A DNA stretch of 64,000 nt. Origin: Alphaproteobacteria bacterium. GTDB taxonomy: Bacteria > Pseudomonadota > Alphaproteobacteria > Methylaequorales > Methylaequoraceae. This document shows, piece by piece, positions 6,305 through 33,085 of the stretch (the stretch's first letter is position 1; each line of letters opens with the position of its first letter). The notes under the pieces were generated by a model that was not told the DNA's origin, did no database searches, and saw only the letters and a program-made list of their open reading frames with translations. A program made the position numbers and the translations under genes. The stretch covers positions 894 to 64,893 of the forward strand of contig BOXE01000007.1 in assembly GCA_019650635.1 (NCBI GenBank). Direction: 5' to 3'.

Positions 6305-6333
6305 TTGAAATGTTATATTATAACACTTAATAT
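6305..6333 (+). promoter_or_regulatory. Sigma70-like promoter TTGAAA-N17-TAATAT whose spacer is a Zur box (TGTTATATTATAACA, 6311-6325)
   Basis: Perfect 7-1-7 palindrome matching the Zur consensus GAAATGTTATAnTATAACATTTC; 56 nt upstream of a COG0523 gene, a classic Zur target. Confidence 0.7.
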
Positions 6334-6380: not shown

Positions 6381-7592
6381 ATGAAAGTTTTAGATAAAAA
6401 ACTTCCAGTCACAGTATTGTCGGGGTTCCTTGGTGCAGGTAAAACAACTCTTTTAAATCACATCCTTAACAATCGACAAGGTCTCAAGGTTGCAGTTATC
6501 GTAAACGATATGAGTGAAGTAAATATTGATGCTAATCTAGTAGAACGTGGAGGTGGTAACTTATCTCAAACTGAAGAGAAACTTGTAGAAATGAGTAATG
6601 GATGTATTTGCTGTACTTTACGTGAAGATCTTTTAATTCAAGTTAGAGAGTTAGCAAATGAAAATAAATTTGATTACCTTCTTATAGAAAGTACTGGTAT
6701 CTCTGAACCTTTGCCAGTAGCAACTACTTTTGACTTTCGTGATGAGGATGGAGCTAGTTTATCTGACGTAGCAAAACTTGATACAATGGTGACTGTTGTG
6801 GATGCTGCAAATCTTATAAAAAATTACAGCTCTACTGATTTTTTAAAAGATAAAGGAGAAAGTCTAGAAGATGATGAACGAACACTTGTTGATCTTCTTG
6901 TCGAACAGATTGAGTTTGCCAATGTTATTCTATTGAATAAAATTGATTTAATATCCTCTGAAGAATTAAAAACTGTTAATGCAATTATAAGTGGACTTAA
7001 CACTGAGGCAAAGGTCTTTGAATGCTCTCATTCGACCGTGAATCTCAAAGAAGTTGTTGGTACTGGATTGTTTGATCTTAAAAAAGCTTACACTCATCCG
7101 TTATGGGCAAAAGAACTTTATAATTTTAAAGATCATGTTCCTGAAACAGAAGAGTATGGTATCACAAGTTTCGTATATTTAGCCCGCGAACCATTTGATC
7201 CGTCAAAAATCTATAATTTCTTCAATCAAGAATGGCCTGGTGTAATGAGATCAAAAGGCTTTTTTTGGATTTCGAGTCGACCTGAATTTATTGGTGAGGT
7301 TTCTCAGGCTGGTGCGTTTGTTCGTCATCAGGGAATTGGAAGATGGTGGACAACTGTACCGAAAGATCGTTGCCAGAAGGACTAATTTTGATGCTTTGAT
7401 CGATAAATATTGGAATAAAGATTATGGTGACCGTCGACAAGAAATAGTTTTTATAGGTTTAAAGTCTGAAATGAGTGAAAAGAATATTCGAGAGAGCTAG
7501 ATGCTTGTCTGATTAAGAACTATCTTGATGATCCCAGTACATATCATAAAGCTCTAGATCCCTTTCCAGCATGGTTTAAAAAAGTAGCTTAA
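6381..7592 (+). CDS. COG0523 / CobW-family metallochaperone GTPase (two frame breaks, about 7290-7385 and about 7495)
   Basis: [13 protein letters not shown]-loop and the GCICCTL CxCC metal motif. The C-terminus continues in other frames ([25 protein letters not shown], then [27 protein letters not shown]). Confidence 0.85.
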
Positions 7593-19208: not shown

Positions 19209-19829
19209 TCAAATAACATTATTGAAACTTAATAATCGAAATTGTCCACCTTTGTGTTTATTATCCTTTTTTGAAAGCATTTCAAGAACACTATAGCTTT
19301 GATATGTAACTTCCAATCCAATTGCAAAATCAGGTTTAATTTGTAAAGCATGAGATAATATTGCCCTTATTGTACCTGCGTGTGTTATGATCAAAATACT
19401 CTGCCCAGCTTTTACTTTTAATTTTTTGAGCCAAATCTCTACTCTTTTACTCTGTTCTAGAAAACTTTCTCCATTTGGCGGTGAAAATTCAGGAGAAATA
19501 AATGAAAAATTATGTTTGTCTTCATTTTTATTTATAAGTTTCCAAATTTCAGAAATTTTTTTTCCTGACCAATCTCCGAAGCTTTGTTCAACCAGATTGT
19601 TTTCTGTAATGATTTTTGAATACTGTTTATATCTTGATAAAGCTTCTGCTGTTTGAATTGTTCGTTTTAAAGGACTCACATACCAATCACAATTATCTGG
19701 TAAACAAGTTGCCAATTTTTTAATTTTATTATTTTTTATAATTGCATCTGGATTATGTTGTGAAAAAAAACCCGTAATTTGTTTTACAGGTGCATGCCGT
19801 ATTAAAAATAATTTCGATGGTTTAATCAA
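19209..19829 (-). CDS. cobC: Histidine phosphatase family protein, likely alpha-ribazole phosphatase
   Basis: LIRHAPV (RHG-type) and ITHAGTIRA motifs; directly downstream of and overlapping cobS. Confidence 0.65.
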   Translation of the reverse strand: MIKPSKLFLIRHAPVKQITGFFSQHNPDAIIKNNKIKKLATCLPDNCDWYVSPLKRTIQTAEALSRYKQYSKIITENNLVEQSFGDWSGKKISEIWKLINKNEDKHNFSFISPEFSPPNGESFLEQSKRVEIWLKKLKVKAGQSILIITHAGTIRAILSHALQIKPDFAIGLEVTYQSYSVLEMLSKKDNKHKGGQFRLLSFNNVI

Positions 19830-20609
19830 TTTACAACAAGAATTACTATAATATTTCCAAATAAAAACATTATATCTGTTAAGAAAGCGATTGCTCCTAA
19901 TATGTCTCCGTTAATACCTCCTATGGCTTTTTTCGATTTTTTTCCAATTAAAAGTATTGTTAAGGTCATTAAGATTATGCCGAATAATATTCCATAGATA
20001 TCTAACACAAACAATGTAGGTAATATCCAAGTTAAAGTAGCTATAAATAAACACTTATTTGAAATTTTTCCAACTATACTTGCTGTTTTTGCAAACTCTG
20101 AATTATTGAATAAGTTTCTTGCTATCATAATGAGAGTTTGCCAGTAGCAAATCCAATGGAAAAATAGCAACTAATGGATATCCTGACTCAAATAAAGCTA
20201 ATATTATTCCTAGTTTAACCAAAATACCTAATACTAATGACATTACTCCATAGGTTCCAAGGCGACTATCATGAATAATTTTATCAATATTTCTAGGAGA
20301 GCCCCCTGCCCCGAGACCGTCTGCAGTATCTGCTAATCCATCTTCATGAAAAGCACCAGTAAGGAGAACACTGAGTGTGATAGCTATAACACAAGACAAA
20401 AAAACAGGAAGTCCCACTTGAATCAGTATATCCCCAGCACCACCAGATAATATTCCTACTAAAAAACCAACTGATGGAAAAGACCAACTAGCTCTTGTTA
20501 AATCTGGTGCTTTTTTTGAGAAATAGGACCATTTTACTGGTATTCTAGTAAAGAACATAAGTGTTGCAAAAAAATCCATTACATATTTATTTTTAAGAAG
20601 TAAATGCAT
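19826..20609 (-). CDS. cobS: Adenosylcobinamide-GDP ribazoletransferase (cobalamin synthase), frame break about 20103-20170
   Basis: Multi-TM protein with FFTRIP and AFHEDGLADTADG motifs, split across ORFs 20103..20609 and 19826..20170. Confidence 0.8.
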
Positions 20610-20611
20610 AA

Positions 20612-21634
20612 TTAAATTTTTTTACTTATCCCTGCTTCTGAAAACGTCGACATTTTGTTATGAGTGGTCAAAGCTGCTCTTATTATCAAACTTGCTACTA
20701 CTGCTCCGCTTCCCTCACCAAGTCTCATGTTTAAGTCAAGTATAGGTTTTTTTTTAAGATGAGAAATTACTCCTGAATGACCTGGTTCAGAAGATTGGTG
20801 AGAAATTAAACAATGATCCAATATATTCTTTTTAAAAAGAGTTAGAGTAGCAGCAGATACAGTTGTAATAAAACCATCCAATAAAACAGGTATACCTTTG
20901 ACCCTTGCTGCGATTACTGATCCTGCAATTGCTGCCATTTCTCTTCCACCAAATGCCTCTAAAATTTTACCTACAGTTTTAAAATTCTTTCCATGTAACT
21001 TCAATCCACTCTTAATAATAGAAATTTTATGTTTAAGTTTTTGTTTAGAAATGCCCGTACCTAAACCTGTCCATTTTTCAACAGATTCATTAAAAAGTGC
21101 GCATGAAATAGCAGTTGCTGCTGAGGTATTAGATATACCCATTTCTCCCAATATTAACAAATCACAATCTTTTGAAACAGAATCAAATCCTAATTGCATT
21201 GCTTCAATTATCTCGCTTTGTTCCATTGCTTTTTCTTTTGAAAAATCCTTAGTAGGTGTTTCAAGCTTTATTGGAATAACTGATAATTTTACTTTAGCTA
21301 AATTACATAGTTGGTTAATTGCAGCTCCTCCATTTTTAAAGTTAGCAACCATTTGCTTTGTTACTTCTGCAGGATAAGCAGACACTTTTTTATTTGCTAC
21401 ACCATGATTAGCAGCATAAATAATGCATTGAAACTTATCCATTTTAGGTTTTTTTCTTTTTTGCCAACCAGCCATCCAAATAGCAAAATCTTCTAATCGA
21501 CCTAAACTCCCAATTGGTTTTGTAAGTTTATTTTGATGTTTTCTAGCCAAATTAGCATAATATTCATGGAACGATTTAAGTGGGACTTTGCCATTATTAT
21601 TTAGCAAAATTTTAATAATATTATCATTAGACAT
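20612..21634 (-). CDS. cobT: Nicotinate-nucleotide--dimethylbenzimidazole phosphoribosyltransferase
   Basis: LTKPIGSLGRLE, GEMGISNTS and LGEGSG motifs; 340 aa. Confidence 0.9.
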   Translation of the reverse strand: MSNDNIIKILLNNNGKVPLKSFHEYYANLARKHQNKLTKPIGSLGRLEDFAIWMAGWQKRKKPKMDKFQCIIYAANHGVANKKVSAYPAEVTKQMVANFKNGGAAINQLCNLAKVKLSVIPIKLETPTKDFSKEKAMEQSEIIEAMQLGFDSVSKDCDLLILGEMGISNTSAATAISCALFNESVEKWTGLGTGISKQKLKHKISIIKSGLKLHGKNFKTVGKILEAFGGREMAAIAGSVIAARVKGIPVLLDGFITTVSAATLTLFKKNILDHCLISHQSSEPGHSGVISHLKKKPILDLNMRLGEGSGAVVASLIIRAALTTHNKMSTFSEAGISKKI

Positions 21635-22946: not shown

Positions 22947-23330
22947 TTAGTAAAAAATTAAGTCAGCTAAAAAAGCAAAGAAAAAACCTGTGATATAAAC
23001 TACAAACGAAAAAGTCAATATAACTGAATTTGTTGACCTTAATTTCAAACATATTTTAGCTTCTGCTGGGTTTGCTGGACATGAAGAATTATTTCTTTTC
23101 CATGCCATATAATATGATAAAGCCAACATAAAACCTGCTAATATAAAGATATATAATTTATATTTTGATAGAACAACAATCCAGGGGAATATTGATACAA
23201 TGCTAACTAAAGTTGTACCTAATCCAACAGTCACAAGCAGAGCTGGTAAAGCACAACAAACTAGTGTACTTAAACTTGTAAATAAACTTAATATTGGTGC
23301 AAACAATTCTTTATAGAAATTACTTAACAT
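22947..23330 (-). CDS. MerT-like metal transport membrane protein
   Basis: Cys-Cys pair in TM1 (LVCCALPALL), second Cys pair in a loop (SCPANPAEAKIC), three TM, C-terminal FY; same layout as Tn501 MerT as I recall it. Confidence 0.65.
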   Translation of the reverse strand: MLSNFYKELFAPILSLFTSLSTLVCCALPALLVTVGLGTTLVSIVSIFPWIVVLSKYKLYIFILAGFMLALSYYMAWKRNNSSCPANPAEAKICLKLRSTNSVILTFSFVVYITGFFFAFLADLIFY

Positions 23331-23631
23331 TTTTTATCTCTCTGACGTCATAACCCGAATCCTTTATCATTTCAGTGATTTTTTCATAACTTAATTTTTG
23401 ATTTTCTTTAAAATTAATAGTAATCAACATATTTTCTAAATTCACTTTTATTCCTGCAACTGATTTTTGTTTTGAAAATATTTTTTCAATTGAACGAGCA
23501 CAAAAATCACATACAAGTCCATTAACATATACGTACAAAATATCACCATTGTATTGTTCATCCGACAGAATTTTACTGCTGTTAAACATTACAAATTGTA
23601 AAATAAACAAATAAATAATAATTTTTTTCAT
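23320..23631 (-). CDS. Periplasmic heavy-metal-associated (HMA) domain protein, MerP/CopZ-like
   Basis: Signal peptide MKKIIIYLFILQFVMF (preferred start 23631, preceded by AGGAG), then GLVCDFCARSIE CxxC in a ferredoxin-like fold. Confidence 0.7.
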   Translation of the reverse strand: MKKIIIYLFILQFVMFNSSKILSDEQYNGDILYVYVNGLVCDFCARSIEKIFSKQKSVAGIKVNLENMLITINFKENQKLSYEKITEMIKDSGYDVREIKNVK

Positions 23632-23641
23632 TTCTTCTCCT

Positions 23642-24289
23642 CTAAAATCTTTTAATGAAGTTAAACATAAAGTCTTTGTAGTTATTAAGACCAAACTCTG
23701 CTAAATAATCCCCTTTAAAAACTCTTAACATTGGAGTAAATGTCAAGTTTTTACGACTTCCCGGCATATGATTGGCTTGAAGCATTATCCAAGTATGTAA
23801 ATATCCATATTCAGCCAAATAAGGAGCCACTCCAATTCTAAATTGTTGTGAAAAAAATTTATCTATCGAAGATGCATAATTAGCTTGATTTTGATAGCTT
23901 GTAAAAAACCTTCTATCTTCCCAATCAAATAAGATGCCTGTGAAAAGGGATGGTTCAAATTTATTTTCAAAAGCTTCATAATTACTAGTTGCTAAACCTA
24001 TTCCGTTCTTTAAATAAAAATTTGTTTGCGACTTAGGTTTATTTATTCTTTTTATGAGATAATTTAATTGAAGTCCATGAAATTGCCATTCTTTTTCTCT
24101 CCAATATTCTGCTCTATAACCTATTGAATAATCAATTGATGGACTATAATGCAAATGAAAACTATGTTTACTAAAATCATTTGCCTGCATTAATGTCCAG
24201 CCTCCAGGATATGAAATTGGTCTAGCATTTATATCTTTTAAGACAATAAAAGTGCACACTAGAACTATTTTGCATAAAAATATCTTCAT
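23642..24289 (-). CDS. Putative outer-membrane beta-barrel protein
   Basis: Signal peptide, alternating aromatic/hydrophilic strands, C-terminal Phe (..NFIKRF). Confidence 0.45.
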   Translation of the reverse strand: MKIFLCKIVLVCTFIVLKDINARPISYPGGWTLMQANDFSKHSFHLHYSPSIDYSIGYRAEYWREKEWQFHGLQLNYLIKRINKPKSQTNFYLKNGIGLATSNYEAFENKFEPSLFTGILFDWEDRRFFTSYQNQANYASSIDKFFSQQFRIGVAPYLAEYGYLHTWIMLQANHMPGSRKNLTFTPMLRVFKGDYLAEFGLNNYKDFMFNFIKRF

Positions 24290-24352
24290 CTTTTCTCCTA
24301 ATAATCAGAAATAAATTCAAGACAAACTTTGTCTCAAAACTTTGAAATAAAA

Positions 24353-24688
24353 TTAGGAAAAAAGTTTTGGCGGGGGTGGTCTTAGTAAAGGGTTTAGGGA
24401 ATCAAATGTAAACGTTAAGTTATTAAAAAAAGAATTATCGATTTGAGCACCTAAAATATCGTCAACTTGAAATGTATTTATTTGAGTATAATAACACTCA
24501 CAATTAAAGCATACGTCTTCAACATCATTTGATTGAGAATGACATGATTTGTTTGAGTGAACATGATTTGTTTCATTAAGTTGAGAATATTTTTTATCTA
24601 AACAATACGAAATAACTTTAGCTGAGATCGTCAAACTAGACAGACTAAATATTAAAACACTTAAAATAAAAAATTTTGCGCGTCTCAT
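24353..24688 (-). CDS. Small secreted Cys/His-rich protein with a Pro-rich C-terminus
   Basis: Signal peptide; HVHSNKSCHSQSNDVEDVCFNCEC cluster; ends LLRPPPPKLFS. Confidence 0.45.
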   Translation of the reverse strand: MRRAKFFILSVLIFSLSSLTISAKVISYCLDKKYSQLNETNHVHSNKSCHSQSNDVEDVCFNCECYYTQINTFQVDDILGAQIDNSFFNNLTFTFDSLNPLLRPPPPKLFS

Positions 24689-24741
24689 AATTACAAACTA
24701 TTAAAAGTTTTAAAAAAATCAATGATTTTATTTGATTGGGG

Positions 24742-24772
24742 TTGACACAGAACAAAGTGTTATAATATAACA
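24742..24772. promoter_or_regulatory. TTGACA hexamer plus Zur box TGTTATAATATAACA (24758-24772) in a divergent promoter region
   Basis: Perfect 7-1-7 palindrome that contains the candidate -10 hexamers; 37 nt before the TonB-receptor ATG and 70 nt before the divergent operon. Confidence 0.75.
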
Positions 24773-24808
24773 TAAAAATAATATCAACATCAATTTAATG
24801 GAAAATCA

Positions 24809-26773
24809 ATGTATAAAATAGTTACCCTCGTCTTGACCGTATTACTTGTAGCTAATGCAAATGCTGAAAAATTAGAATCTATATTTGTTGCACCAGATGT
24901 ATTTATAACATCTAAAATTAAGCCGAGTACTGAATATGAAAGTGATAGGGGTAATATTTTATATGATTCTCATGAACTAGAAAAAAGCAGACAATACTCT
25001 ATTGGTCAGATGCTCAAAGATTTACCAGGAATTGCTTCACAAGGTCTGGGTAACGCTTCACGTCCAATAATCAGGGGTCTTGGTAATTCGCGAGTTAAAA
25101 TTTTACAAAACAGTTCTTCACTAGGTGATGTTTCCGAATTTGGTGAGGATCATATTGTTGGATATGATCCATTATTAATTGATAAAATAGAAATTATTAA
25201 AGGGCCCGGTACGTTACTTTATGGAAACAATGGTTTTGCTGGAGTTGTAAACATTATAAACCCTTTAATTGCAGTAGATAAGCCTCTTTCTGACGAAAAC
25301 GTCCAATTAGGTTTTGGATACAAGACCTCAGGTGGAGAGTTGGGAACAGCATTAAAACTTGGTAAATCTGTGGACAATTTTACTGTTAGAGGTTCTGGAA
25401 GTTTTGTAAGTGCGGGACCTTACGATTTAGCAAATGTTTCAACTAAGCAAGCAAATTCATCAAAGTTCATGACATCCGGCGGCGTTGGAATAACATACAA
25501 TGATGGTCAGAATCATCTTGGAGTTTCTTTGGACAAACTAGAGGCTGTATATCAAAATCCTGGTCCTGAAGGAGAAGAAAATATGACATCACTTAACCCT
25601 ACAAGAAACACAATAAATTTTGATTCTTCACTGGCATTAGATTATTTAATCTTTGAAAAGTTTAACTTAGAAGGCACTGTCTCTGAATATAATCATGCTG
25701 AAAGAACAGGCGATGGTAACAATCATAATATAACATTTTTCAATGATATATATGAAATAAAAACATCACTGAATCACAAATCTCTGTTCAATCAAAATGA
25801 AGAAGGATTATTCGGTTTTCATTTCATGAATAAAAATCAAGGTGCAACAGGAGCAGAGGAAGGTCATTTAACTCCAACGAAGACAAATAGTTTTGCTTTA
25901 TTTGCTCTCGAAAAATTAAAATTTGATTTATTTGATTTAGATCTTGGTGGTCGAATTGAATCTGTAAATTTGAAAACAACACAGCATGAGAGAGGTTTTT
26001 TTCCTGCTGCATTTTCTTCCACTGCAAAAAGAGAAATCTTACCAAACAATACAGTATTTTTAGGTTTTGACTTTACACAAAGAGCACCGAATGCTGTCGA
26101 ATTATTCGCAGACGGTCCTCACCACGCTCTTGAAAATGTTGAGACAGGTAACTTAAACTTAGAAAAAGAGAGTTCTTACAATGTATCACTTGGATATAAT
26201 TATGATGAAAATCTAAATAAATTAAAAATTGAAGCATATTATAATTATATTAATGATTTTATCGCTGCAGATAGGAACGGTAGAACTCAAAATGTTGAAG
26301 GTGAAGATTTTAATGTTGTTATTCACGATCAATACAATGCATTATTTACAGGAGTAGAATTGAGTGGTCAGTACGGCATAACGAAATTGGATGATTTTGA
26401 TTTCCTTGCTAATTTTGTAGGGGAATTTTTGAAGGGTTACAGAACATCCAATGACAAGGCTATAACTAGAATTCCACAATCAAAAGTAAATGTTGGTTTA
26501 CAACTCATTAATGAGGAATGGGATACTAATCTTAAATATTATCATTATTTTGATAAAGAATTCACAGGTCCCTTTTATACAAGAACAGGTGGTCACTCAA
26601 GATTAGATTTTGATCTCACAAAAGATTTCATGTACTCAGATTTATCTGGCCATGCAATGTTTAGTGTAACCAATCTTCTGAATACAGTTGGTCGTGATCA
26701 TCTTGAGGCAAAAAAGGGTCAAGTTCAATTACCTGGTAGAAGTTTTAATTTTAATTTAAAGCTATTCTATTAA
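24809..26773 (+). CDS. TonB-dependent outer-membrane receptor (ZnuD-like by context)
   Basis: Signal peptide, plug domain (IEIIKGPGTLLYGNNGFAGVVNI), long beta-barrel, C-terminal ..NLKLFY. Confidence 0.9.
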   Translation: MYKIVTLVLTVLLVANANAEKLESIFVAPDVFITSKIKPSTEYESDRGNILYDSHELEKSRQYSIGQMLKDLPGIASQGLGNASRPIIRGLGNSRVKILQNSSSLGDVSEFGEDHIVGYDPLLIDKIEIIKGPGTLLYGNNGFAGVVNIINPLIAVDKPLSDENVQLGFGYKTSGGELGTALKLGKSVDNFTVRGSGSFVSAGPYDLANVSTKQANSSKFMTSGGVGITYNDGQNHLGVSLDKLEAVYQNPGPEGEENMTSLNPTRNTINFDSSLALDYLIFEKFNLEGTVSEYNHAERTGDGNNHNITFFNDIYEIKTSLNHKSLFNQNEEGLFGFHFMNKNQGATGAEEGHLTPTKTNSFALFALEKLKFDLFDLDLGGRIESVNLKTTQHERGFFPAAFSSTAKREILPNNTVFLGFDFTQRAPNAVELFADGPHHALENVETGNLNLEKESSYNVSLGYNYDENLNKLKIEAYYNYINDFIAADRNGRTQNVEGEDFNVVIHDQYNALFTGVELSGQYGITKLDDFDFLANFVGEFLKGYRTSNDKAITRIPQSKVNVGLQLINEEWDTNLKYYHYFDKEFTGPFYTRTGGHSRLDFDLTKDFMYSDLSGHAMFSVTNLLNTVGRDHLEAKKGQVQLPGRSFNFNLKLFY

Positions 26774-26779
26774 TAAAAT

Positions 26780-27145
26780 ATGTTTAAGTATTACTCTTCA
26801 TACACATTGTTATGGATAGGCCTAACACATCTGTTATGCTGTGGTTTGCCTTTGACGTTATCATTTGCTTCATTATCTTCAAATGCATTATTTTTGGACT
26901 CACTCCTTTTAAACTCTGAATTATTAGAAGCTGCTGAACCATATCTCTTTGCAATTACTACGCTTATATTTTTATTAATCATTTCTTTTGAGATCTACAA
27001 TAAAAAAATAAAGTGCCAAGATGATGAATGTGATACTGAACAAGAATGCAGTACGACCAATAAAAAAATTAAGACCAATCTTATTCTCGCAAGTATTCTT
27101 TATACTCTCAATAGTTCAATCTTTTTATCAGAAGTTATCCTCTGA
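26780..27145 (+). CDS. Second MerT-like Cys-Cys membrane protein
   Basis: HLLCCGLPLTL in TM1, Cys-rich loop KCQDDECDTEQEC, three hydrophobic segments. Confidence 0.5.
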   Translation: MFKYYSSYTLLWIGLTHLLCCGLPLTLSFASLSSNALFLDSLLLNSELLEAAEPYLFAITTLIFLLIISFEIYNKKIKCQDDECDTEQECSTTNKKIKTNLILASILYTLNSSIFLSEVIL

Positions 27146-27148
27146 TTT

Positions 27149-27790
27149 ATGATTTTAAATTGCGAAAATATGAAATCCTTAATGGATTTCAAACATAATA
27201 ACCATCAATTAGCGATTTTGAATCGTCAAGTTCCTGAGGATTCCAATCTTTTCTTTAGTGAATTAAACATAACTCCTTTTTCAACTTCAGGTTATGTTTC
27301 ATTAGAGAATAGCTTAAAGGACATTAGCAAGCTTACAGAAGAAAAACTTCCATCAAAAATTAGGAAAAACATATTTTTCGACAATTGGTTAAAAGATATG
27401 AGTGAAATTTGTAAAATGTTTTGTTTATTTCAAGAAAAAGACAAAATAAGTTTTTGGTTGGGATCTGAGAGAGGTTGTAAACGTTTTCATGTTGATATGG
27501 TCCCTTATAGATGTTTAGTAACTTATTCCGGACAAGGTACAGAATTACTCCCTGATAATGCTGCAGACAGGAATGCTTTTATTAGTGGAAAACCAAATGA
27601 AAATATAATTAAAGACAGATCAGCGATAAGATATTTAAATAAATGGGATATCGCAATTTTTCGTGGTGGAAAACATGGAATTTTACATCGAACTCCAGAA
27701 TCAGCATTAAATGATAGATCTTCAATTTTAATGAGGCTTGATGATTCTACTTTTTTAGAGCAAATAGAAAAAATAAACACTGTTAATTAA
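27149..27790 (+). CDS. Hypothetical protein, possibly DUF1826 family
   Basis: FHVD..R.LVTYSGQGTE....FRGGKHGILHRTP pattern; family assignment is from memory and context only. Confidence 0.4.
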   Translation: MILNCENMKSLMDFKHNNHQLAILNRQVPEDSNLFFSELNITPFSTSGYVSLENSLKDISKLTEEKLPSKIRKNIFFDNWLKDMSEICKMFCLFQEKDKISFWLGSERGCKRFHVDMVPYRCLVTYSGQGTELLPDNAADRNAFISGKPNENIIKDRSAIRYLNKWDIAIFRGGKHGILHRTPESALNDRSSILMRLDDSTFLEQIEKINTVN

Positions 27791-27857
27791 ATATTTGTTA
27801 AAAGTTCATGGTTAAATAAAGTAAATAGTTTTACAACGATTGTTTAAAACTGAGGAT

Positions 27858-28523
27858 CTATTGCTTTGAATTACCAATAAATTTATTAGCTTTGAACATT
27901 CCTTTTTTTATTGATCCGTCTTGTAACGTTAACGTTCCATAACCGTCAAATAAGTTTTTTTTAAAGCTACCAGTGTATTTATCTCCATTCGAATAAGTTA
28001 TTGTCCCCTCTCCGGATCTCATACCATCTACAAATTGTCCAACATAAATTGATCCATCGGAAAATGTATGAGTTCCTTTACCGTGAGGAAGGTCGTCTAT
28101 GAAATCTCCTGTATAATTCTCTCCGTCTGAAAAAGTTGAAGAACCTTTTCCATGGTAATAACCATTTTTAAATCCTCCTTCGTATTTATCGCCATTTGCA
28201 AATGTGAAGGTTCCTTGACCATTTTGTAATCCATCTTTAAACTCACCAATATATACGTTTCCGTTAATAAATAAGTATGATCCTTTACCATTATACTTGT
28301 TATCCTTGATCTCTCCGACATATTTTTCACCATTTTGGTGAAAGATTGTTCCATAACAATGTCTTACAAAGTTTCCATCGCAAGCAGGAAGAGCAGAAAT
28401 CTTTGATGAAAGAAAAAGGAGAGGTAAAATTAATAAAATAATTTTTTTTTTGTGCATGCTATTAAGATAATCATTCGAAATTAATTTGCCATATCTAGTA
28501 AATAATTCGTTAAAGTTGATCAA
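27858..28523 (-). CDS. Secreted MORN-repeat protein
   Basis: Seven or more YxGxxxxGxxxGxG repeats (YVGEFKDGLQNGQGTFTF..); a signal peptide starts at the internal Met (alternative start 28457). Confidence 0.85.
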   Translation of the reverse strand: MINFNELFTRYGKLISNDYLNSMHKKKIILLILPLLFLSSKISALPACDGNFVRHCYGTIFHQNGEKYVGEIKDNKYNGKGSYLFINGNVYIGEFKDGLQNGQGTFTFANGDKYEGGFKNGYYHGKGSSTFSDGENYTGDFIDDLPHGKGTHTFSDGSIYVGQFVDGMRSGEGTITYSNGDKYTGSFKKNLFDGYGTLTLQDGSIKKGMFKANKFIGNSKQ

Positions 28524-29563
28524 CGATGTTCATATTTGTAATTTTCTAAGATTTGATATTGATAGTTCCCAGATAACATGTTCCAATATTCTTTATAAAA
28601 TTTTTCATTAAAATCTCTTAAATTTTTAAAATCAACATGAATTTCAGGTGTATTAGTATTTATTTCAATTCCCCATAAAGATTTATCATCATAAGGCAAA
28701 AATCCATATCTAAGATCACCAATTAAAAATCTATTTAATGGATGAATGTATATAAAATCATCTGAAAAAAAAGAGAATCTCCGAATATCCTCTCTTTGAA
28801 TTGAATTTGACTTTAACTCTGGGAAAACTGATTCTTTATCAATAGCATTTAAAATAGCTCCCGATTTAAATTTTGGTTCATCAAAAAAAGGTGCATATAC
28901 AGCATCAACATAATATTTGTTGTTTGTTCTATAAACACTTCTCCACAGAATTATATTTCCAATTGTTGGTTTAATAATTAACCTTTCTATGTTGTGCCCT
29001 CTTCTCTCAGATATTTCAAAAATAAAATCTTTTACTTGTAGATGTTTTTGATAACAAAGGAAAATATAAAAAAAACTAAACAAAATGCTTGATCTTATTA
29101 AAGAAGTTGATTTTTTAAGCAAGGAAAAAATTAACAAAAAAACTAAAGTAAAAGTAAATATAGGATCTACAATCGATATTAGATTCAAAGAAACTCTAGA
29201 TTGACTAAGGGGCCAAAAAAGAGTTGTTCCGTAACTTGTAAGTGAATCAAGTAAACCATGACTCAAAAATCCAATCAAAGTAAACAAGTATATAAATCGT
29301 AATGACATTCTTAACTTGTAGAAACAAGTAAAAATTATCAAAGAAACAAATATACTTCCAATTGGCGCAAAAAATAAAGAATGTGTAAAATGTCTATGGT
29401 ATTCAATAAAAAGAAGTTGGTCATTTTCGGATCTTATAAAAATATCTAAATCTGGCGCTAATCCCCCAATTGCACCACACAAAGAGGCTTTTCGAATATC
29501 TTTTTTATTAGAAAAAAGTGAAGAAAAAGTTGCTCCAATCAAACCTTGAGTACATGGATCCAT
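28520..29563 (-). CDS. YdjM-like membrane-bound metal-dependent hydrolase with a C-terminal soluble extension
   Basis: N-terminal MDPxTQGLIGA, His-containing TM helices (HRHFTHS, SHGLLDS); 347 aa. Confidence 0.6.
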   Translation of the reverse strand: MDPCTQGLIGATFSSLFSNKKDIRKASLCGAIGGLAPDLDIFIRSENDQLLFIEYHRHFTHSLFFAPIGSIFVSLIIFTCFYKLRMSLRFIYLFTLIGFLSHGLLDSLTSYGTTLFWPLSQSRVSLNLISIVDPIFTFTLVFLLIFSLLKKSTSLIRSSILFSFFYIFLCYQKHLQVKDFIFEISERRGHNIERLIIKPTIGNIILWRSVYRTNNKYYVDAVYAPFFDEPKFKSGAILNAIDKESVFPELKSNSIQREDIRRFSFFSDDFIYIHPLNRFLIGDLRYGFLPYDDKSLWGIEINTNTPEIHVDFKNLRDFNEKFYKEYWNMLSGNYQYQILENYKYEHR

Positions 29564-29569
29564 AAATTT

Positions 29570-31420
29570 TTACTCTGATTTGCTAGCTGCGCATTCTAAT
29601 ATTTGGCTCTCTAGTATTATTTTTTGTTGTCCCTCTATTGTATTGTAAATGCAGTATGTCTTATTTCCAGATTTATATGATTTTATCAACCCCATGCCCA
29701 TTGGACCCGAAAATGTTTTTACATCTGTTATTTTCATTTTACTTGAATCATCTTTTTTAAAGTGAAGAAAACAATAAGTGATAATTCCTGATAAGGTAAG
29801 ATAGTAAATAGTTGGAATTAAAGTAATCCTTAAAACATTACCCTCTCTTCCAAATAAACCAACTGTAGCTGAAGCTGCTACAACATTATGTATAGCTATC
29901 ATATTTCCAGCTGCTGCTCCAACACTTTGTGCAGCAACCATCAACACCCCTGAAATGTTCAAAAGATTTGCAGTTTCATATTGAAATTGACTAAGCATCA
30001 GGTTACTAACAGTATTAGAGCCAGCTAGAAATGCTCCAATGGCACCAACGGTTGGTGCAAATATAGGATATATTTGTCCCATCAGATTCGATACACCTTG
30101 AGCCATAGAAATTGGCATACTAGCAATATCATTATAATTAACACCAGAGTTAATCATTATTCTTACCAGCGGAACTGTAAATATCAAAACAAAGCCTGCA
30201 CTTAAAATAGTTTTTGATGAATCGATTATTGACGAACTAATTTCCTTAGAAGTCATTCTATGTAGAAAAAAAGTGATAAAACAAATAAAAATTAAAATTC
30301 CTCCAGGAAGATATAATAATTGAAAACTTGCACTTATATTTTCTTCTTTAAAAATATTTTCAAACTTAATATTTACAGATTGTAGAAATTTTTTTAACGG
30401 TTCAAAAGTTCTTGAAAATACAAGTAGTAAAGCGAGTAATAAATAAGGAAGCCAGGCCATAAAACTTCCTATATTTCTTTTATTTTCTATAACTTCTTTA
30501 TTTTGAGGGTTACAAATCCAGTTTAATGGCCAATTTTTTGAAGGTTGAAAGTCCCATTCATCTTTTGGAATAAGAAATTTTCTTTTTGTAGCAATTGTAA
30601 CTATAAATAATCCAGTTAATCCTCCTATTATAGATGGAAATTCTGGGCCAAGAAAGATACCTGTTAATAAATATGGTATTGTGAAGCTCAATGATGCAAA
30701 GATTGCAAAAGGAAATATTGATAAACCTTCAAACCAAGATTTTTTTTTACCAAAAAATCTCGTCATTATGACTACTAATAAAATTGGCATAAGTAGTCCA
30801 CAAATTGAGTGAATTATTGCGACTTTAATGACTATAGAATCAAAGAATGAATTCCATTCCAATCCATTTTCCAATAACTTATTAGAAATGCTTATTTTGT
30901 CTAGTCCACCCTGAACACCAACCAATAAAGGCGTTCCTACTGCACCAAAAGAAACAGGTGTGGATTGTATCATCATACCAAAAACTACTGCAGCAATTGG
31001 AGGAAAACCAACAGCAACCATCAATGGTGCAGCTACTGCAGCAGGAGTACCAAAACCTGAAGCTCCTTCAATAAAACACCCAAACAACCACGCGATTATA
31101 ATAACTTGAACTCTTCTATCTTTACTTATGTCAGAAAATCCAGATCTGATAGTGTTTATTGCACCTGAATATTTTAGTGTGTTTAATAACAAAATAGCAC
31201 CGAAAATAATCCATAAAATACTTATACTAATAATTAGACCCTGAAGAGTTGAGGCTAAAATTCTGGCTTCACTCATTCCCCAAATAAAATAAGAAATAAT
31301 GCTAGTAAATATAAAAACTAGGGGCATTGCAATTTTAGCTGCAATTCTAAAAACAATCAAAAGAATTCCAGCTAAAAAGATTGGAGAAAAAGCTAAAATG
31401 GGGAAAAAAATCTCTTTCAT
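29570..31420 (-). CDS. L-lactate permease (LctP) family transporter with an extra C-terminal tail of about 70 aa
   Basis: 616 aa, multi-TM, LctP-like segments ([23 protein letters not shown]). Confidence 0.8.
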
Positions 31421-31596: not shown

Positions 31597-33085
31597 ATGA
31601 CCTATGTAAAACTTAAAAATCTATTTGAAGAACAAAGTTTACTAAATGATATAAATGGTATCTTAAATTGGGACATGGCTACATATATGCCTCAAAAATC
31701 AAGAAATCAGCGTGTTAGACAAATACAAAAAATTCTTGATTACAAAAAAAGCATTTTTGACCAAATTAAAAAAAAAGAATTATTTAAAAAGATCAATGAT
31801 TCCAGCCTGAGTCCTGAAGATAAATTAAACCTTAATTTAATGAGAGATAAGTTTGAATACTTTGATATCGTTCCATATGAATATATAAAAAAAAAAAACC
31901 TCACTTGCAATTTTGTGTGAAGGTGAATGGAGAAAAGCTAAACTAAAATCAAATTTTAATTTAGTTAAAAAATCATTTAAAAAGCTTGTTGATGTAATAA
32001 AGATTGAGTCTGAAATACTATCTCAAAAAAAGGATAAAACAAAATACGATTGTTTATTATCTAAATACGACAGATCACTGACCTCTTCACGCATTACAAA
32101 AATTTTTTCTAGGATAGAATCGTTTTTAAAAAAGAATATCCCGTCAATTTTAGAAAAACAAAGAAGCTATAAATCAATTTCTTTTACCGAAAATCTCTCA
32201 GAATCAGAACAATTTGAACTATCAAAAGATTTTATGAAAAAACTTGGCTTTGATTTTTCTCGCGGAAGAATTGATAAAAGTTCACATCCTTTTTGCGGTG
32301 GAAGTTCTGAAGATATTAGAATTACTACAAGATATAATGATGCAGACTCATTTTCTTGCTTTGATGCTCTTATGCACGAAACAGGTCACGCTATTTATGA
32401 ACAAGGACTACCTAAAAAATGGTTGCATCAGCCATTAGGTTCATCTGGAGGAATGTCACTTCATGAAAGCCAATCACTTTTTATTGAAATGCAAATTATT
32501 AAATCTCTACAAGTAAGCCATTTAATCGAAAAAATAATCAAGAATAATTTTGGGAAGAAAAATCCTACTTGGAATCAAGAAAATATTTATAGAAACAGAA
32601 AGCAGGTAAAAAAGAACTATATAAGAGTAGATGCTGACGAAGTTCATTATCCTCTTCATATAATGCATAGGTTCAAAATTGAAAAAAAAATTATTGAAGA
32701 AGACTTTGATGTCAATTTTCTTCCGGAACTTTGGAATGAAGAATTTTATAATATATTCAATATAAAAGTTGATAGTGACCAAAACGGTTGTTTGCAAGAT
32801 ATTCATTGGTTTGGTGGAGATTTTGGTTATTTTCCTACTTATAGTATTGGGGCATTTATTGCAGCTCAGATTTTTGATTGTATAAAAAAACAGAATCCTA
32901 AATTAGAAATCGATTTAAAAAATGGAAATTTTTTACCAATAATCAATTGGTTGAAAAAAAATATTCATAGCCACGGTAATTATTATAAAATTGACGAACT
33001 TTTATTAAATGTGACAGGTGAAAAGCTGAATTTAAAATACTTCGAAAAACACATTACAGACAGATACTTAAAAGAAAAAAAATAA
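31597..33085 (+). CDS. Carboxypeptidase Taq (M32) metallopeptidase, frame break in the A12 tract 31887-31898
   Basis: HETGHAIYEQG zinc motif, HESQS, DIHW; the N-terminal ORF 31597..31920 joins ORF 31913..33085 across the poly(A) run. Confidence 0.85.

Follow-up and report, generated by a model that had tools for sequence, protein, structure and literature searches.

The closest described relatives of the locus analysed here are Zur-regulated zinc receptor systems (for example, Neisseria ZnuD and Caulobacter ZnuK/ZnuL with znuGHI), the MerT and MerP proteins of mer operons, and the metal-sensing proteins CutF (Rhodobacter) and CruR/DUF2946 (Bordetella). In Caulobacter, Zur sites validated by electrophoretic mobility shift assay share the motif GTTA-N5-TAAC, the operator overlaps the −10 element, and znuK and znuGHI, which are divergent, share a single site (PMC4176598); 7-1-7 palindromes are a documented form of the Zur box (PMC6103462). 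CutF and CruR are small proteins destined for export; while still nascent, the chain senses copper and adjusts a pause of the ribosome at a C-terminal proline motif, with 45 residues between the Cys and proline motifs; CutF unmasks the cutO Shine–Dalgarno sequence, CruR controls Rho termination, and fixed spacing is a hallmark of such arrest-peptide sensors (PMC9973294, PMC9426467). Outside ZnuABC and ZIP, little is known of how zinc and other soft metals pass the inner membrane once TonB-dependent uptake has brought them in. Here we compare with these systems a locus of two divergent gene sets in a 64,000-nucleotide stretch of an alphaproteobacterial genome (the window; assembly GCA_019650635.1, contig BOXE01000007.1, positions 894 to 64,893). 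One set encodes a TonB-dependent receptor, a small membrane protein (HxxCC, after its motif) and a DUF1826 protein; the other encodes a small Cys/His-rich secreted protein, an outer-membrane barrel, a periplasmic HMA-domain protein and a second small membrane protein (MerT2). The organism is an uncultured marine alphaproteobacterium, to which single-cell genomes (AG-908-P05, AG-359-F09 and others) are 96–98% identical.

All seven open reading frames (ORFs) were recovered in an ORF check of the window (Table 1), with intergenic gaps of 6 and 3 nt on the plus strand, a 63-nt gap, a 10-nt gap and an 11-nt overlap at the minus-strand junctions, and a divergent intergenic region of 120 nt between the two sets, in agreement with the initial annotation, which had proposed that the seven genes form one metal-acquisition system. 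We instead consider it likely that the locus comprises two separable metal modules set back to back. The plus-strand module is probably a standard Zur-controlled zinc-starvation receptor operon with an unstudied small membrane protein, whereas the minus-strand module has a good chance of being an undescribed, widespread four-gene metal-relay cassette under CutF-like leader control; the two appear, with comparable likelihood, to share only the 120-nt divergent region and to be otherwise independent. No match to either module, and no description of the Zur operon and cassette in combination, was found in the literature searched, in keeping with the initial annotation's view of the combination as uncharacterised.

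This division is carried by how the genes are distributed. In a genome scan, the cassette occurred in at least 554 species-level genomes, and 88 cassette loci spanned the Alphaproteobacteria, Dadabacteria, Thermodesulfobacteriota, Spirochaetia, Gammaproteobacteria and Bdellovibrionales, with protein identities of ~50% throughout and the order barrel, HMA, MerT2 kept, adjacent and on the same strand, in ~85 of the 88. Approximately 75 of these loci had no receptor, DUF1826 or Zur box at all, and the receptor, HxxCC and DUF1826 genes accompanied the cassette in only ~12, all from one marine clade. The plus-strand genes were also found without the cassette in relatives, and were separable from each other (an HxxCC–DUF1826 pair, DUF1826 alone, or DUF1826 relocated beyond the cassette). 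Synteny of the seven genes does exist in other genomes, namely the ~12 marine-clade loci, but the modules mostly occur apart, which argues against a single system. Recurrent neighbours of the cassette were lineage-specific only, and no recurrent transcription factor was found next to it in 85 cassette loci.

Within the cassette, the barrel and HMA assignments of the initial annotation were borne out. The barrel model had a signal peptide and 12 strands (pLDDT 89.9), and fold searches returned generic outer-membrane barrels only, without a specific family. The HMA protein, with a signal peptide, exceeded the PF00403 cut-off (E = 2.7 × 10−9; 37.7 bits versus 24.8); its gene lay directly 3′ of the barrel gene in ~85 of 88 loci, and G-[LM]-[VI]-C-D-F-C was present in 84 of 84 distinct homologues. 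Some of these carry further sites (His-rich N-termini in 39 of 84, MDHSKMDH repeats in a few, and an extra Cys pair in about half), none of which is found in the window protein. MerT2 belongs to a strongly conserved family with CC-A-x-P in its first transmembrane helix, a loop C84-P85...C94 and GFFFAF in the C-terminal helix; C25, C26, C84 and C94 are invariant. Both small membrane proteins had been called MerT-like, and a distant likeness did stand: in an alignment of MerT2 to the verified MerT of Tn501, the CC motifs coincided (hhalign, E = 3.6 × 10−4, probability 37%), NCBIfam Mer transporter models, the sole recurrent curated matches, weakly matched 7 of 36 and 5 of 36 members, and both proteins weakly matched MerTP_fusion (E ~6 × 10−4; 19 bits versus a cut-off of 180). 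Membership in the Mer families did not, with both families at or below ~25 bits against Mer cut-offs of 130–180 (NF033556, NF010314 and NF033560). MerT2 may, on these weak sequence matches, be a distant relative of Mer transporters; profile and sequence searches found no solved-structure relatives for it. Two of the four cassette proteins fall in no curated family, and, weak Mer matches aside, Pfam and NCBIfam searches came back empty for the leader, the barrel and both small membrane families.

Like MerT/MerP, the cassette sets a periplasmic HMA CxxC gene beside the gene for a ~120-residue three-helix membrane protein, and MerT2 and MerT have in common a helix-1 Cys-Cys and a pair of Cys residues in the loop on the cytoplasmic side. 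In contrast to mer operons, it lacks merA and merR (neither was a neighbour in the window gene list or recurred in 85 cassette loci), the HMA gene precedes the membrane-protein gene, and there is also an outer-membrane barrel gene and a leader ORF. Taken together, an entry barrel, a thiol carrier in the periplasm and a membrane protein of Mer type are most simply read as an inward relay, whose metal and direction we infer from the parts.

The first gene of the cassette, whose Cys/His-rich product had been counted among the transport parts, looks by analogy like a regulatory nascent-peptide leader. The family retained only 28% mean column identity; what was kept was the signal peptide, a C-H pair, CxxCxC and a C-terminal PP[KR]xxS. 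The PP stood exactly four residues from the C-terminal end in 43 of 50 distinct leaders, and the CxC-to-PP spacing was 40, 41 or 44 residues in 43 of 48. When CutF-like proteins were defined as having fewer than 150 residues, an N-terminal signal peptide, PP in the last 15 residues and a same-strand downstream gene within 1 kb (PMC9973294), 76 of the 88 cassette loci had such an ORF upstream, including the window (111 residues, 63 nt from the barrel gene), where the N-terminus is hydrophobic and ends in ISA before K (judged by eye) and PP lies at −6/−5. The likeness to CutF and CruR extends to small size (fewer than 150 residues), a signal peptide, a Cys motif, a proline motif a few residues from the end, a near-constant motif spacing of ~40–45 residues and first place in a metal operon; as in cutF–cutO, a stem-loop is predicted to mask the Shine–Dalgarno sequence of the next gene. 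The differences are that the cassette leader is unrecognised by the DUF2946 model and has CxxCxC with an upstream C-H, that CruR ends with RAPP three residues from its end whereas the cassette leader has [RQ]PP[KR]xxS with PP four from the end, that neither paper names, in its main text, a barrel/HMA/MerT-like cargo among the neighbouring genes, and that the anti-Shine–Dalgarno element here is the stop-codon region itself. The cassette leader would thereby extend the recently described CutF/CruR class of nascent-peptide sensors to new cargo.

The predicted masking structure joins the two ends of the leader–barrel junction. Its 5′ arm consists of the last leader codons and the stop codon (ACUUUUUUCCUAAU) plus one more base, and its 3′ arm (AUUAGGAGAAAAG) is the Shine–Dalgarno sequence directly 5′ of the barrel-gene AUG (predicted ΔG −22.7, z −2.89). 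The Shine–Dalgarno window paired with the leader 3′ end in 43 of 44 distinct junctions (GC 26–57%; median z −2.0). When the arms were fixed by objective anchors, namely the stop codon and the final GGAG ahead of the start, each pair of the resulting 8-bp helix was formed in 29–38 of 39 sequences, and at stop-codon base 2 an A-U pair was exchanged for G-C. Paired cells made up 85.9%, compared with 81.8 ± 0.9% in shuffles (0 of 500 reached the observed value) and 41–56% in slid registers, and the covariation score was 0.259 against 0.184 in shuffles (0 of 500), comparisons to be read knowing that kinship among the junction sequences inflates shuffle controls. The leader ORF ends in CUCCU-stop, which is predicted to pair with the barrel Shine–Dalgarno sequence; because its UCC is part of that pairing, the conserved terminal Ser is read from the alignments as a constraint on the RNA rather than on the protein. 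Such a stop-codon region acting as the anti-Shine–Dalgarno element would be an unusually clean signature, searchable elsewhere, and a self-contained control of this kind fits with the lack of a recurring transcription factor beside the cassette.

Under this reading, the cassette would be a mobile, phylum-spanning unit with its own post-transcriptional control, in which the CUCCU-stop of the leader, as the fold prediction and covariation suggest, masks the Shine–Dalgarno sequence of the barrel gene. If the leader works as CutF and CruR do, a ribosome paused at PP, four codons before the stop, would hold the anti-Shine–Dalgarno arm and so expose the Shine–Dalgarno sequence, and metal bound to CxxCxC, 40–44 residues upstream and just outside the exit tunnel, would lengthen or shorten the pause. 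The cargo (barrel, periplasmic CxxC HMA protein and MerT-like protein) would then serve as a thiol relay that takes a thiophilic metal inward.

Among the alternatives, the one that fares best gives the cassette a role in detoxification or cuproenzyme supply, with copper or some other toxic thiophilic metal (Cu, Hg, Cd or Ag) as its substrate, no part in zinc handling and an incidental adjacency to the receptor. We regard this as possible though on balance doubtful. CutF- and CruR-type leaders mostly head copper operons, the CxxC and CC sites of the HMA and MerT-like proteins suit soft metals, MDHSKMDH repeats occur in some HMA partners and many leaders are Met-rich, and a glutaredoxin–MauE fusion follows the cassette in 10 loci. 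However, neither MerA, MerR, CopA nor a multicopper oxidase recurred beside the cassette in 85 loci, an outer-membrane entry channel would be odd for detoxification, the His-rich N-termini of 39 of the 84 HMA partners are typical of Zn, Ni or Co binding, CutF-like leaders are not all copper-specific, and in the marine clade the cassette lies repeatedly among Zur genes.

Less probable is that the small Cys/His protein is a true periplasmic metal-binding part and that the RNA helix provides plain translational coupling, without metal sensing. Invariant Cys and His residues behind a signal peptide would suit a metallochaperone, and helices that mask a downstream Shine–Dalgarno sequence are common coupling devices; yet sequence outside the motifs is barely conserved while both the Cys-to-PP spacing and the PP-to-stop distance are fixed, and pairing in the RNA, not the protein, accounts for the C-terminal Ser. 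A regulatory leader accommodates these features better.

The plus-strand module has a different control element. The perfect palindrome TGTTATAATATAACA, of 7-1-7 form and eleven bases 3′ of a TTGACA hexamer, was present where the initial annotation had placed it, and the Zur-type label given there fits: the box exactly matches GTTA-N5-TAAC and recurs before zinc-regulon genes. Within the window, TGTTATAWTATAACA (at most one mismatch) occurred twice (starting at 24758 and 6311) against 0.05 expected, and none of 100 shuffled windows held two copies, so chance in an AT-rich sequence does not account for the box. The second perfect copy precedes zigA, whose product carries a GCICC motif and matched the ZigA model NF038288 (E = 9.7 × 10−159; 528 bits versus a cut-off of 600, over profile positions 1–327 of 390). 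Across 1.55 Mb of related loci, the box (at most one mismatch) had 27 occurrences, of which 24 were intergenic, preceding the receptor, COG0523, an ABC/FtsX/DUF3299 system, relocated DUF1826 and a Fur-family gene. TTGACA-N11-13-box was kept 5′ of the receptor in the relatives examined, down to ~55–60% protein identity, with the exceptions of one locus with a 1-mismatch box and another whose called start lies upstream of the box. These findings support the prediction that the palindrome is the Zur-type operator of this lineage.

We assign the box to the plus-strand genes, because it tracks them through rearrangements and is absent at cassette-only loci. An HxxCC–DUF1826 pair 4.4 kb away from the receptor and a solitary DUF1826 gene in relatives each keep their own perfect box; in L024, two tandem boxes precede the receptor (L024 9436-9473) and DUF1826 has moved beyond the cassette with its own box, such that the cassette is flanked by Zur-boxed genes on both sides. 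In L002 and L003, 46 nt separate the box from the receptor gene, against ~590 nt between box and cassette. Upstream of cassette-only loci, including low-GC marine alphaproteobacteria ~60% identical, the box was absent (the best site, in L021, had two mismatches), and no Zur-like boxes were found upstream of the cassette in other phyla. Conservation of the palindrome, which the initial annotation had singled out for checking, therefore holds before the plus-strand genes and fails at cassette-only loci. A MacB-like ABC pair (an ATPase and an 829-residue FtsX-type permease) lies by the cassette in the marine locus L026 (3346-6505) and by a Zur-boxed solitary DUF1826 gene in L094 (7882-11042).

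In relatives, zur, the ABC/FtsX/DUF3299 system and a CDF exporter lie directly beside the same operon; in L001, L006 and L096, this block lies between the DUF1826 and YdjM/lactate-permease genes. No homologue of the zur/ABC/FtsX/DUF3299/CDF block was found anywhere in the 64-kb window, and its place (27791-31420) holds only a MORN-repeat gene (27858-28523). The earlier statement that no ABC component is in view is accordingly true of this window but does not extend to the relatives. The likeness to described Zur-regulated zinc receptor systems includes the plug-plus-barrel receptor, the 7-1-7 GTTA-N5-TAAC operator overlapping the −10 element, and a regulon with COG0523/ZigA, DUF1826 and, in relatives, ABC/FtsX/DUF3299. 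By the corresponding mechanism, Zur would bind the 7-1-7 box over the receptor −10 and block transcription when zinc is sufficient, and the receptor operon would be transcribed when zinc is scarce.

Several observations weigh against two independent modules, or against the way in which we read their parts. Three of 30 leader family members reached only E ~0.13 against DUF2946 (PF11162), which did not recognise the leader, and its motif spacing is 40–44 residues rather than the 45 of CutF and CruR. The Shine–Dalgarno sequence and the Ser-stop ending could each be conserved for reasons of their own. The hhalign probabilities to MerT for the two small membrane families were 37% and 5%, with scores far below cut-offs, and the loop Cys residues, invariant across the broad HxxCC family, are variable and lost in some marine-clade members. 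A candidate minus-strand promoter has its −10 within the box; such matches occurred at chance frequency in AT-rich DNA in the promoter scan, and this candidate was set aside as evidence. In the marine clade, the cassette adjoins Zur-boxed genes in four different arrangements, and in one relative (L022, 9774-9997) the receptor and the barrel, HMA and MerT-like genes occur with a 225-nt gap in place of a leader ORF, leaving a box 167 nt upstream as the sole recognisable control element. Because of the four Zur-adjacent arrangements and the leaderless L022, a functional link between cassette and zinc is conceivable within the marine lineage.

The same arrangements are among the points in favour of the original proposal, a single Zur-controlled zinc importer built from all seven genes and reaching from the outer membrane through the periplasm to the inner membrane. 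The 120-nt divergent region holds one box, with 38 nt between it and the receptor gene and 71 nt on the side of the leader gene, in a layout like that of Caulobacter znuK/znuGHI, which likewise share one Zur box (PMC4176598), and the candidate minus-strand promoter with its −10 in the box would fit. We nevertheless consider a single importer improbable: the cassette occurs across phyla without receptor, DUF1826 or box, related marine cassette-only loci also lack the box, in L002/L003 some 590 nt separate cassette and box, the plus-strand genes are also found where the cassette is absent, and the cassette has its own conserved control element. That the box might instead be the operator of another Fur-family or unrelated regulator (for iron, manganese or copper) is very improbable, for although no Fur-family gene lies within this window, the box-bearing genes are zinc hallmarks (ZigA, a ZnuD-like receptor, DUF1826 and ABC/FtsX/DUF3299), the box sequence fits GTTA-N5-TAAC, and the Fur-family gene adjoining the operon in relatives scores best as Zur (8 × 10−28 versus ~1 × 10−8 for Fur).

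Turning to the products of the plus-strand operon, the receptor exceeded the cut-offs for PF07715 (Plug, 56.5 bits) and PF00593 (barrel, 82.5 bits), as expected from its annotation as TonB-dependent. Its best NCBIfam model was ZnuD (NF038289; E = 9.4 × 10−65) and its best solved relative was ZnuD 4RDR (2.2 × 10−30; next ~1 × 10−7), but at 219.5 bits it is far below the equivalog cut-off of 950. By sequence, it is best described as ZnuD-like rather than as a ZnuD equivalog, and its family suggests that it would carry zinc or a zinc chelate across the outer membrane.

The HxxCC protein follows the receptor. It has three invariant Glu residues and a Cys-rich cytoplasmic loop, and an exhaustive profile search of 1.84 billion representatives recovered only 101 relatives, which share H-x-x-C-C-[GV]-x-P, conserved Glu residues, the loop DC...C-H-x-P-C-x-x-K-K and frequent His-rich tails. 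No curated family was found for it among Pfam and NCBIfam beyond weak Mer matches, and it is weakly similar to MerT2 (E = 4 × 10−4) and MerT (E = 7.5 × 10−3); the invariant His and the Cys3His loop set it apart from MerT. In the literature searched, this protein is listed in none of the described Zur regulons, and nothing relevant was found on MerT-like parts in zinc regulons; the mention of a 'MerT family' in a selenoprotein preprint by Haft refers to a different system. Outside the marine clade, HxxCC genes are mostly solitary and downstream of recJ, as in most of 22 metagenomic loci recovered with a narrower profile, 2–4 of which had a Zur-like box. In distant members (L097, L099, L104, L106, L109 and L117), the order is homoserine dehydrogenase, glpX-type fructose-bisphosphatase, recJ, HxxCC, hisI and glutathione synthetase, and many recJ-linked proteins have His-rich C-terminal tails. 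A Zur-like palindrome was present in just 2–4 of 16 upstream regions of non-marine-clade HxxCC genes (for example, 30 nt upstream in L097 and 73 nt in L104); because of this low number, a general zinc link is not established for the broad family, and the link is firm in the marine clade only.

On the basis of its motifs and regulon membership, the HxxCC protein may move or hand over metal at the inner membrane, using the His and Cys-Cys of helix 1 and the Cys-rich cytoplasmic loop. It is a testable candidate for such a step in the Zur regulons of abundant, uncultured marine alphaproteobacteria, and in a low-zinc ocean systems of this kind bear on how oligotrophs acquire or substitute trace metals. 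More tentatively, a bolder reading, which we hold to be less likely than not, would see two undescribed systems here. One would be a phylum-spanning uptake cassette in which a metal-sensing, nascent exported leader unmasks a ribosome-binding site and whose cargo is a Mer-style thiol relay, re-used for a nutrient metal, that needs neither ATP nor TonB. The other would be HxxCC, as a new kind of small inner-membrane zinc importer or acceptor downstream of ZnuD-type receptors, which in the marine lineage might replace the ABC systems that the locus lacks.

Table 1 Positions of the features discussed, in window coordinates unless another locus is named.
Feature	Position	Strand	Details
MerT2, three-helix inner-membrane protein, last cassette gene	22947-23330	−	
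Periplasmic HMA (MerP/CopZ-like) protein	23320-23631	−	Signal peptide; G-L-V-C-D-F-C
Outer-membrane 12-strand beta-barrel, no curated family	23642-24289	−	215 aa; signal peptide; C-terminal Phe
Predicted Shine–Dalgarno-masking RNA	24290-24365	−	5′ arm 24352-24364; 3′ arm 24290-24302; inner 10-bp hairpin 24316-24338
CutF/CruR-like leader ORF	24353-24688	−	111 aa; signal peptide; C49-H50; C60xxC63xC65; C-terminal RPPPPKLFS
Receptor promoter region	24742-24772	+	TTGACA (−35) 24742-24747; Zur-type box 24758-24772; likely −10 inside box
ZnuD-like TonB-dependent receptor	24809-26773	+	Plug and barrel
HxxCC small three-helix membrane protein (MerT1)	26780-27145	+	Invariant H17, C20, C21, P24
DUF1826 protein	27149-27790	+	Predicted double-stranded beta-helix (2OG-oxygenase-like) fold; cytoplasmic
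Second perfect Zur-type box	6311-6325		TGTTATATTATAACA; precedes zigA by 56 nt
ZigA-type COG0523 zinc metallochaperone GTPase	6381-7500	+	Frameshift-split (6381-7385 plus 7291-7500)
Split genes: zigA; M32 carboxypeptidase; cobS	6381-7500; 31597-33085; 19826-20609		
cobT; cobS	20612-21634; 19826-20609		Cobalamin lower-ligand attachment
Further boxes in the rearranged relative	L024 12273-12285; L025 2612-2624		

The last gene of the operon encodes a DUF1826 protein, as had been annotated (PF08856; 85.6 bits versus a cut-off of 22, profile positions 3–202 of 202), which looks like a cytoplasmic protein with an oxygenase fold and is unlikely to be a transport component. Its model (pLDDT 92.7) had 65 Protein Data Bank matches at E ≤ 1 × 10−3, with TM-scores of only 0.35–0.45, and those listed were nearly all Fe(II)/2-oxoglutarate (2OG) and JmjC oxygenases; H114-x-D116...H180 is invariant in the family. 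Profile and sequence searches found no solved-structure relatives, and an exact look-up of the window protein returned no record. DUF1826 is a known Zur-regulon member (Francisella FTN_1758 and Pseudomonas PA5534; cluster figure of Haas et al. 2009), and the window protein shares with these the Pfam family and the Zur-box association, differing in that its gene forms an operon with the receptor and HxxCC. The family is labelled 'succinylglutamate desuccinylase' in the literature, in contrast to the 2OG-oxygenase-like HxD...H site predicted here; as modelled, the protein would belong to a zinc-sparing response rather than to transport.

Some neighbours of the cassette recur within lineages. Alternative complex III-like genes (a molybdopterin subunit, NrfD-like, DUF3341-like and cytochrome c) lie on the opposite strand 2–4 kb downstream of the cassette in ~21 loci (L034-L061, Dadabacteria and Thermodesulfobacteriota); this probably reflects inherited synteny, and could also point to copper supply for respiration. 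The glutaredoxin–MauE fusion membrane protein is encoded directly 3′ of the cassette on the same strand (L010-L012, for example L012 8528-9262, and 7 more), which hints that the cysteine relay needs a dedicated reductant. By base composition, the cassette was not marked as foreign.

In the window itself, zigA, an M32 carboxypeptidase gene and cobS are each split into two overlapping ORFs where relatives have a single ORF, which could reflect sequencing or assembly frameshifts or true pseudogenes. Just past the cassette lie cobT and cobS, which are also its neighbours in relatives.

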